Part shown: positions 1 through 2,126 of the stretch, piece after piece | How positions within the stretch are numbered: position 1 is the stretch's first letter | How the letters are laid out: each line of letters starts with the position of its first letter | DNA from: a virus | Taxonomy: Duplodnaviria; Heunggongvirae; Uroviricota; Caudoviricetes | Length of the DNA: 12,017 bases | Virus record (IMG/VR): IMGVR_UViG_2526164649_000015 | Direction: 5' to 3' (one strand) | Notes under the pieces: generated by a model | Databases searched by the model: none | Told to the model about the DNA's origin: nothing | What the model saw: only the letters and a program-made list of their open reading frames with translations | Translations under genes and position numbers: made by a program

Positions 1-790
1 TTACAGAGTTTCCTCAAAGAACGGAGCTAATACTGAAATTGCTTCAGCCACATAGGCTTTGCCGTCATAAAGATCCATATGGTTTGCGCCTTCAACAATG
101 TGATAGCGTTTATCTTGGCTTGATGCCCGATCGTACAGGTCGTCACTCATCCATTTGCTCCCTGCTTGGCTGCCCGCCACAATCTGCATCGGCTGAGTCA
201 GGTACACTTCCGCCATATGGTAAGCATCATAGGTAATAATCTGGTTAAGGCTGCGCAAAGTAGCGTAACCCGGTGCTGTTGGATACTGCGCACGAGGTGT
301 GTGGTAATACTCCCAGGCCTGACGCAGTTCTTCGTTCGGCGCATCGGCCTCCTTCATTGGAGCCAGTGGCATAATGGCGTATTCTTCGCTGCTAATATCG
401 CTGGTTCGGGCGTTTGAGCCAGCTTCAATGTGTGGCAGAGCATCAATAGATTTCACATTGTTTTCCCAACCATTGCGGAACATCGAACCAATATTGACCG
501 CACTAACGGTACCGATGGCCTTGATGCGGCGATCCTGAATTGCAGCATTGGCTGTATATCCTGCACCGGCACAAATTCCCATCGCACCAATTCGGGTATT
601 GTCGACATAAGAAAGCGTTGTCAGGTAATCAATCACGGCACTGACGTCTTCAGTACGAATGTATGGGTTTTCTAACTGACGCGGCTCGCCGCCACTTTCA
701 CCTTGATAAGATGCGTCATAAGCAATAGTGACAAATCCCTTTTCCGCCAGCTTTTCGGCATAGGTTCCGGCCGTTTGCTCTTTAACGCCC
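1..790 (-). pseudogene. alpha/beta hydrolase (dienelactone-hydrolase-like, Cys nucleophile), 3' segment of a gene split by IS2
   Basis: Minus-strand frame is open from the stop at 1-3 (tta = TAA) through 790 with no in-frame stop; the ORF track shows 1..636 and I extended it by hand to the IS2 boundary. Translation contains MGICAGAGY (G-x-C-x-G elbow) and a C-terminal EGANHMD His region. The reading frame continues exactly across the IS2 target duplication into 2127..2257. Possibly ycjY-like (context and length only). Confidence 0.8.
786..790. repeat. IS2 target-site duplication, left copy (CGCCC)
   Basis: cgccc immediately precedes the IS2 terminus TAGACTGG at 791; the identical pentamer follows the other terminus at 2122-2126. 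IS2 is known to make 5-bp duplications. Confidence 0.9.
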
Positions 791-881
791 TAGACTGGCC
801 CCCTGAATCTCCAGACAACCAGTATCACTTATTTAAGTGATAGTCTTAATACTAGTTTTTAGACTAGTCATTGGAGAACAG

Positions 882-1247
882 ATGATTGATGTCTTAGGGC
901 CGGAGAAACGCAGACGGCGTACCACACAGGAAAAGATCGCAATTGTTCAGCAGAGCTTTGAACCGGGGATGACGGTCTCCCTCGTTGCCCGGCAACATGG
1001 TGTAGCAGCCAGCCAGTTATTTCTCTGGCGTAAGCAATACCAGGAAGGAAGTCTTACTGCTGTGGCCGCCGGAGAACAGGTTGTTCCTGCCTCTGAACTT
1101 GCTGCCGCCATGAAGCAGATTAAAGAACTCCAGCGCCTGCTCGGCAAGAAAACGATGGAAAATGAACTCCTCAAAGAAGCCGTTGAATATGGACGGGCAA
1201 AAAAGTGGATAGCGCACGCGCCCTTATTGCCCGGGGATGGGGAGTAA
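882..1247 (+). CDS. insC: IS2 OrfA (InsC) transposase DNA-binding/regulatory protein
   Basis: ATG at 882 preceded by GGAGAA; product [40 protein letters not shown]... matches IS2 InsC as I recall it. The track ORF 837..1247 is the same frame from an upstream alternative start, which I reject. Confidence 0.93.
1199..1205 (+). other. programmed -1 ribosomal frameshift heptamer A-AAA-AAG of IS2 (orfA to orfB)
   Basis: gc[a aaa aag]tgg in the orfA frame; orfB is open in the -1 frame from this point. Confidence 0.8.
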
Positions 1248-2110
1248 GCTTAGTCAGCCGTTGTCTCCGGGTGTCGCGTGCGCAGTTGCACGTCATTCTC
1301 AGACGAACCGATGACTGGATGGATGGCCGCCGCAGTCGTCACACTGATGATACGGATGTGCTTCTCCGTATACACCATGTTATCGGAGAGCTGCCCACGT
1401 ATGGTTATCGTCGGGTATGGGCGCTGCTTCGCAGACAGGCAGAACTTGATGGTATGCCTGCGATCAATGCCAAACGTGTTTACCGGATCATGCGCCAGAA
1501 TGCACTGTTGCTTGAGCGAAAACCTGCTGTACCGCCATCGAAACGGGCACATACAGGCAGAGTGGCCGTGAAAGAAAGCAATCAGCGATGGTGCTCTGAC
1601 GGGTTCGAGTCCTGCTGTGATAACGGAGAGAGACTGCGTGTCACGTTCGCGCTGGACTGCTGTGATCGTGAGGCACTGCACTGGGCGGTGACTACCGGCG
1701 GCTTCAACAGTGAAACAGTACAGGACGTCATGCTGGGAGCGGTGGAACGCCGCTTCGGCAACGATCTTCCGTCGTCTCCAGTGGAGTGGCTGACGGATAA
1801 TGGTTCATGCTACCGGGCTAATGAAACACGCCAGTTCGCCCGGATGTTGGGACTTGAACCGAAGAACACGGCGGTGCGGAGTCCGGAGAGTAACGGAATA
1901 GCAGAGAGCTTCGTGAAAACGATAAAGCGTGACTACATCAGTATCATGCCCAAACCAGACGGGTTAACGGCAGCAAAGAACCTTGCAGAGGCGTTCGAGC
2001 ATTATAACGAATGGCATCCGCATAGTGCGCTGGGTTATCGCTCGCCACGGGAATATCTGCGGCAGCGGGCTTGTAATGGGTTAAGTGATAACAGATGTCT
2101 GGAAATATAG
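1205..2110 (+). CDS. insD: IS2 OrfB (InsD) DDE transposase catalytic ORF, made as an OrfAB fusion by -1 frameshifting
   Basis: 301-codon ORF from GTG 1205, stop at 2108-2110; product ...[10 protein letters not shown]...WLTDNGSCY...[17 protein letters not shown]... recognised as IS2 InsD. Confidence 0.93.
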
Positions 2111-2121
2111 GGGCAAATCCA

Positions 2122-2126
2122 CGCCC
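2122..2126. repeat. IS2 target-site duplication, right copy (CGCCC)
   Basis: Identical to 786-790; directly follows the IS2 terminus ...GGGGCAAATCCA. Confidence 0.9.

Follow-up and report, generated by a model that had tools for sequence, protein, structure and literature searches.

An IS2 insertion splits ycjY in one Shigella flexneri sublineage, at a PgrR operon already in decay

A 12,017-nt stretch of DNA, filed as a virus record (IMGVR_UViG_2526164649_000015) in IMG/VR and called the window here at its full length, carries a complete copy of the insertion sequence (IS) IS2, and this copy splits a gene that, judged from its sequence, is the alpha/beta-hydrolase gene ycjY. Positions 3803-15819 of AKMV01000020.1 (GCA_000268085.1) match the window at 100% identity; PMC6397287 gives this assembly as Shigella flexneri 2850-71. 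We put a probability of about 95% on a simple transposition of IS2 into chromosomal ycjY of S. flexneri, as a late step in the decay of a locus that was already broken.

A complete IS2 flanked by a 5-bp duplication

The element occupies window positions 791-2121 (1331 bp), belongs to the IS3 family, and has its transposase genes on the plus strand, antisense to ycjY. Its first bases are TAGACTGGCCCCC and its last bases are GGGGCAAATCCA. Directly outside these ends the same pentamer, CGCCC, is found at 786-790 and again at 2122-2126, constituting a 5-bp target-site duplication; for one fixed pair of pentamers, identity by chance has a probability of 1/1024. Comparison with empty sites agrees, since CGCCC is present twice here but only once in Escherichia coli and in the S. 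flexneri strains J1713 and SFBU1023. The length matches the ~1.33 kb of IS2, and the element is bounded by terminal inverted repeats that are imperfect: a 32-nt core at 800-831 is 78% complementary to 2082-2113, and a 1-nt offset is required for the repeats to be aligned end to end.

Coding content is likewise that of IS2. Both frames are open, orfA (121 amino acids) with the Pfam domain HTH_Tnp_1 and orfB (301 amino acids) with HTH_21, rve and rve_3. The heptamer A AAA AAG at 1199-1205 is read by orfA as X XXY YYZ, and slippage by −1 there yields a 409-amino acid OrfA-OrfB fusion that aligns over its whole length to the NCBIfam model for IS3-family transposases (276.6 bits; cut-off 160). Thus the open frames, the register of the heptamer and the domain hits together give the two overlapping genes and programmed −1 frameshift characteristic of IS2. 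The match is also specific to IS2, at the level of both protein (NCBIfam IS2 TnpB, 719.7 bits against a cut-off of 597; IS2 TnpA, 238.8 bits against a cut-off of 229) and DNA (99.7% identity to E. coli copies annotated as 'IS3-like element IS2 family transposase'). The features of the element and of the gene it interrupts are as follows.

1-790, minus strand: 3' portion of ycjY, from the first base of codon 46 to the stop codon at 1-3 (homology and open reading frame calls)
786-790, no strand: left copy of the target-site duplication, CGCCC (identical to 2122-2126; empty sites hold one CGCCC)
791-2121, plus strand: complete IS2 (99.7% identity to annotated E. coli IS2; NCBIfam TnpA and TnpB hits)
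791-832, plus strand: left terminal inverted repeat (IRL) of IS2, ~42 bp, imperfect (inverted-repeat alignment, with the outer limit as generally given for IS2)
882-1247, plus strand: IS2 orfA (insC), 121 amino acids (open frame; HTH_Tnp_1)
1199-1205, plus strand: A AAA AAG programmed −1 frameshift heptamer (register of orfA; model match of the fused product)
1205-2110, plus strand: IS2 orfB frame (insD), 301 amino acids, rve/DDE integrase core, Phe136Ser at nucleotide 1611 (open frame; Pfam)
2081-2121, plus strand: right terminal inverted repeat (IRR) of IS2, ~41 bp (inverted-repeat alignment)
2122-2126, no strand: right copy of the target-site duplication, CGCCC (identical to 786-790)
2122-2257, minus strand: 5' portion of ycjY, Met1 to Gly45 plus the first base of codon 46 (reads into the IRR of IS2, giving a 58-amino acid product)
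2258-2394, no strand: undisturbed intergenic region between the divergent ycjY and pgrR (aligns collinearly with E. coli)

In its 1331 bp, its imperfect repeats of ~41-42 bp, its 5-bp duplication, its orfA and orfB with an A6G −1 frameshift, its rve/DDE transposase and its nucleotide identity of 99.7%, this copy resembles the IS2 (IS3 family, IS2 group) of E. coli and Shigella. It differs from the best E. coli copy at four bases (832, 833, 1504 and 1611). The pair at 832-833 (AA in the best E. coli copy, TT in the window and in three sister copies) forms the central dinucleotide of a palindrome at the left end, ATCACTTA-NN-TAAGTGAT; TT is the reverse complement of AA. The change at 1611 (T to C) converts Phe136 of orfB to Ser and is private to the window: none of the three sister copies, inserted at this very site, has it, and the E. 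coli copies lack it too. Either a true mutation or an error of the draft assembly may account for it.

The interrupted gene is ycjY

Removal in silico of 791-2126, that is, of IS2 and one copy of the duplication, leaves a single otherwise unbroken open reading frame (ORF) of 921 nt on the minus strand, with its start at 2257, its stop at 1-3, and 306 codons plus the stop. The product of this restored ORF is identical at 305 of 306 residues to the E. coli alpha/beta hydrolase encoded beside pgrR, and its residues 1-306 align to PDB 5XB6 ('Uncharacterized protein YcjY') with E = 1.8e-200; its Pfam hits are Peptidase_S15, DLH, Hydrolase_4 and Abhydrolase_1. Since NCBIfam offers no equivalog-level name for YcjY (nor for the truncated PgrR described below), with every hit falling under its cut-off, the identification rests on the full-length identity to the annotated E. 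coli protein, on PDB 5XB6 and on synteny. The E. coli gene order is mpaA, an SDR (short-chain dehydrogenase/reductase) oxidoreductase gene, an alpha/beta-hydrolase gene and ycjY, divergent from pgrR and mppA; the gene studied here keeps this conserved arrangement, with pgrR pointing away from it on one side and the second hydrolase, SDR and mpaA genes following downstream on the other. The ycjY-ymjDC-mpaA genes belong to the PgrR (YcjZ) regulon (PMC5934670).

An earlier note, made from the letters of the window alone, had described a full-length IS2 with both terminal repeats, the frameshift heptamer and a perfect CGCCC duplication, splitting a 306-codon alpha/beta-hydrolase frame free of any other lesion; every one of these features is recovered here. 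Its suggestion that the locus might be the PgrR-regulated hydrolase is upheld by the synteny with E. coli and by the published regulon, and the two things it proposed to look for, a contiguous homolog of the restored ORF and an empty site in related genomes, both exist, the former as E. coli YcjY and the latter as described in the next section.

IS2 entered directly after Gly45, within the HPGGG motif of YcjY, and no intact, expressible ycjY is left: the gene is split after codon 45 and the only callable pieces are of 58 and 211 amino acids. The 5' part reads into the right end of IS2, giving a 58-amino acid stub that is also called as a gene in UGYT01000001.1, CP024470.1 and UGYQ01000001.1. 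The 3' part is given by gene callers as a 211-amino acid fragment with a GTG start (1-636). Split into a short stub and a promoterless 3' portion, ycjY is therefore a pseudogene, and neither fragment would be expected to give an active protein. We also considered the C-terminal fragment as a functional truncated enzyme and rejected this on the reasoning that the HPGGG region is missing from it, as are the N-terminal part of the protein and a promoter of its own. The restored ORF is thus like E. coli YcjY, the product of the first gene of the PgrR-repressed ycjY-ymjDC-mpaA operon, in its length, its sequence and its divergence from pgrR, but unlike E. coli ycjY the gene is here split by IS2 and accompanied by a regulator and operon partners that were already pseudogenes.

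Empty and occupied sites in related genomes

Of 5426 complete E. coli genomes, 5214 align to the restored 1.5-kb sequence in one piece (95-99% identity), and the empty site is therefore contiguous in them; the occupied junction (window 700-880) was found in none of the 5426. An exact-match scan for the left ycjY/IS2 junction among GTDB species representatives, which provide one genome per species, gave no match. Within S. flexneri itself, the ycjY site is empty in J1713 and SFBU1023, which hold CGCCC there only once. One single-nucleotide polymorphism in ~1570 bp separates J1713 from the window flanks, and YcjY of SFBU1023 is identical to the product of the restored ORF. Full-size YcjY has moreover been detected in proteomes of S. 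flexneri 2a (PMC9264714), and the gene is therefore expressed where it is intact.

Relatives with an occupied site were retrieved by exact-protein look-up of the 211-amino acid ycjY fragment. In three megabase-scale assemblies (UGYT01000001.1, CP024470.1 and UGYQ01000001.1) the site of IS2, its orientation and the flanking duplication are those of the window, from which they show 0-3 differences over the 1.8 kb compared. CP024470.1 is S. flexneri 71-2783, of serotype 3a, whose genome was built with PacBio reads and an optical map (PMC5754485). The left junction is also present in short-read contigs from Logan (L009-L012), which end ~29 bp into the IRL. The ycjY::IS2 insertion is thus confined to one S. 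flexneri sublineage; found in at least four assembled strains and in several short-read assemblies, it marks that sublineage and is not an event of a single strain.

These comparisons bear on two objections. One is that the IS2 is an assembly artefact, a repeat misplaced in a 15.8-kb draft contig; the source is indeed a draft from 2012, and it shows homopolymer-length differences that resemble sequencing errors. Yet identical junctions and the identical duplication recur in three independent megabase-scale assemblies, one of them made with PacBio and an optical map, and the short-read contigs of other samples break off within the IRL at the very same junction, so that we give an artefact practically no credence. 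The other is that the common ancestor of all these S. flexneri strains already had the insertion, which J1713 and SFBU1023 then lost by excision. Precise loss between the 5-bp duplicates would indeed recreate the observed empty site exactly, but this history calls for two independent and very rare precise excisions, each leaving a perfect ORF, where a single insertion suffices, and intact YcjY is found in serotype 2a as well; we consider it extremely unlikely. Nothing that we found contradicts the IS2 insertion itself.

SFBU1023 also has an IS2 copy elsewhere at the locus, in opposite orientation (L016, 5683-7014), ~2.4 kb from the empty ycjY site and just past the IS600 in pgrR; IS2 can therefore sit near this locus in strains without the ycjY insertion.

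ycjY was lost after its regulator and operon partners

The surroundings of ycjY in the window are as follows.

2395-2830, plus strand: truncated pgrR (ycjZ), of whose 299 codons the first 145 remain (no homology to E. coli pgrR beyond 2830)
2831-3683, minus strand: partial IS600, which truncates pgrR and is itself cut by IS911 (annotation)
3684-4918, plus strand: IS911-like element, lacking 15 internal bp and differing by homopolymer indels from sister strains (inverted repeat, annotation, strain comparison)

Homology to E. coli pgrR ends at 2830, in codon 146 of 299, where an end of IS600 begins (2830/2831). The truncated frame continues for 24 codons into IS600, giving a 169-amino acid product (2395-2904) that keeps HTH_1 and the first ~60 residues of LysR_substrate (~60 of 209 profile positions matched); a full-length PgrR of 299 amino acids, with its helix-turn-helix and complete LysR substrate-binding domain, is not encoded. 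The identical pgrR/IS600 junction occurs in J1713 and SFBU1023, in CP178302.1 (which bears the label E. coli ECMA0423) and in the strains whose ycjY is split by IS2, and the exact-match scan of GTDB species representatives gave matches for it. Because J1713 and SFBU1023 share this junction while their ycjY site is empty, pgrR::IS600 predates the IS2 event.

Further lesions lie just upstream of the window. They were read by comparison with the intact E. coli locus, using positions 1-3802 of AKMV01000020.1 (L003) and 3596-8943 of J1713 (L002). The second alpha/beta-hydrolase gene is split by an IS110-family element of ~1.45 kb, the SDR gene has a +1 frameshift (position 2865 of L001), and mpaA holds another IS600, which splits the gene, is flanked by a 3-bp duplication (TAA) and lies in inverted orientation relative to the copy in pgrR. 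J1713 and SFBU1023, both with intact ycjY, share the pgrR::IS600 and second-hydrolase::IS110 junctions, and J1713 shares mpaA::IS600 as well; every such lesion whose site falls inside the retrieved sequence is common to these two strains.

The history that best fits these comparisons is as follows. Elements of the IS3 family move in a copy-out/paste-in mode, by means of the OrfAB DDE transposase produced through frameshifting. In the common ancestor of a sublineage that includes 2850-71, 71-2783 and the strains of UGYT01000001.1 and UGYQ01000001.1, one IS2 copy integrated between codons 45 and 46 of ycjY, inside HPGGG, duplicating CGCCC. On the simplest order, loss of pgrR and of the downstream operon genes came first, and ycjY, the last intact gene, was struck later, in one branch only; this order is proposed because J1713 and SFBU1023 carry the older lesions together with an empty ycjY site.

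Two statements of the earlier note need revision in this light. It had called the insertion recent, which holds in the sense that it is younger than the pgrR::IS600, mpaA::IS600 and IS110-family lesions, but not in the sense of a de novo event in this strain, since it is fixed in the sublineage. It had further proposed that the insertion removes the target of the regulator. Here the order is the reverse: PgrR had been truncated first, by the IS600 that interrupts codon 146 of its 299, and the operon genes further downstream had by then been inactivated as well, so that no regulatory circuit was left for IS2 to disturb.

The same state of the locus speaks to the notion that IS2 serves here as a mobile promoter or regulator of its neighbours and not as a simple knock-out. 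IS2 is able, in one orientation, to activate adjacent genes, which is the general ground for entertaining such a role. On one side of the element, however, stand the 3' fragment of ycjY, the IS110-interrupted hydrolase, the frameshifted SDR gene and mpaA::IS600, all of them broken, and on the other side the ycjY stub and truncated pgrR offer no intact target. The chance that IS2 acts in this way appears negligible.

Neutral decay or selected loss

Since the regulon was already dismantled, the hit on ycjY was probably selectively neutral, under selection relaxed during Shigella genome reduction. Some points weigh against this account of late, neutral decay. First, the neutrality is something that we infer from the state of the locus. 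Second, expression of intact YcjY in S. flexneri 2a (PMC9264714) means that loss of ycjY could have a phenotype. Third, the order of events is a matter of parsimony over a handful of genomes, not of a dated phylogeny. Finally, the 2012 draft could be in error at Phe136Ser and at three homopolymer indels of the adjacent IS elements.

The contrary proposal is that inactivation of ycjY was positively selected, as a pathoadaptive shutdown of PgrR/MpaA/MppA murein-peptide recycling that alters muropeptide release and NOD1 sensing. Every visible gene of the module has been struck (mpaA, the SDR gene, the second hydrolase gene, ycjY and pgrR), pgrR is no longer followed by mppA, and ycjY has been inactivated independently at least three times. 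In addition, NOD1 is reported to detect S. flexneri, and scavenging by MppA/Opp has been proposed to keep local muropeptides and the immune response low (PMC11509177). Against this, ycjY is intact in J1713 and SFBU1023 and its product is expressed in serotype 2a, so that its loss is not a general trait of Shigella; Shigella genomes are in general densely loaded with IS elements and with genes that decayed at random; and the YcjY structure, PDB 5XB6, is deposited as 'uncharacterized'. We regard positive selection on the loss of ycjY as very unlikely. Broader still is the idea that the stepwise loss of the whole PgrR-controlled module (pgrR, ycjY, the second hydrolase, SDR, mpaA and possibly mppA) was a selected remodelling of peptidoglycan-fragment recycling, with ycjY::IS2 as its last step and with an altered release of NOD1-stimulating muropeptides in the host; this we hold to be quite improbable.

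Two further ycjY lesions were noticed, independent of the IS2 insertion. In SRR31781087 (Logan; L008, 601-1521) a 1-bp deletion at nucleotide 238 (codon 80) of ycjY occurs in an E. coli-like locus whose mpaA, SDR and hydrolase neighbours look intact; the same 211-amino acid fragment with a GTG start is called there without any IS2. In CP178302.1 (L015, 3673-4462) ycjY has several frameshifts and a stop codon, at 96.8% DNA identity, and the pgrR::IS600 and mpaA::IS600 junctions are those of S. flexneri; its small genome (4.44 Mb) and its IS pattern point to a Shigella-like lineage filed under E. coli. Both lesions fit relaxed selection on ycjY.

The event is of an ordinary and already well understood kind, IS-mediated pseudogenisation in Shigella, and is visible in public genomes. 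IS expansion in Shigella is an established picture, and ~12 kb holding two IS600 copies, an IS110-family element, IS2, IS911, a frameshift and a prophage remnant resembles it closely; we see no difference in kind from IS-driven genome reduction in Shigella generally, only one specific example that can be used as a sublineage marker. As such, ycjY::IS2 offers a clean marker, typable by polymerase chain reaction, for the S. flexneri sublineage that includes the serotype 3a strain 71-2783, and a textbook case of late-stage pseudogenisation in which an operon's last intact gene is lost after its regulator and partners. Wider importance would require evidence that muropeptide shedding or host sensing changes once the PgrR/MpaA/YcjY module is lost.

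Nested IS elements and the prophage remnant

The IS elements beyond pgrR vary among strains. In SFBU1023 the IS600 in pgrR is full length and there is no IS911. The 15-bp internal deletion in IS911 (~4446) is found in the window and in 71-2783, and is not present in UGYT01000001.1, UGYQ01000001.1 or J1713. Relative to the complete 71-2783 genome the window has homopolymer differences at 2868 (T6/T7), 3758 (A6/A7) and 4169 (G4/G3), which alter the ORF calls in IS600 and IS911 and the length of the PgrR fusion (169 amino acids versus 160); these indels are probably sequencing errors.

From 4919 to its end at 12017 the window consists of a defective myovirus-type prophage, in the place where E. 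coli has mppA. The remnant starts with the C-terminal end of a small terminase, followed by a large terminase (a 289-amino acid ORF at 5153-6022) that is without phage homology from ~5945. Its baseplate and tail genes comprise Pam3_gp18, E217_GP41, Sheath_initiator, Baseplate_J, Phage_Wedge1, a 461-amino acid tail fibre and Caudo_TAP; no portal, capsid, sheath or tube genes occur between the terminase and these genes. To the right of IS911 (4919 onward) the tail-gene remnant is present in 2850-71, UGYT01000001.1 and UGYQ01000001.1, and lambdoid genes with DUF4014 and DUF551 are found at this place in J1713 (L002, 12538 onward) and 71-2783 (L005, 1-1717). Because the DNA right of IS911 differs among such close strains, an IS911-mediated rearrangement or recombination after the IS2 insertion is implied.

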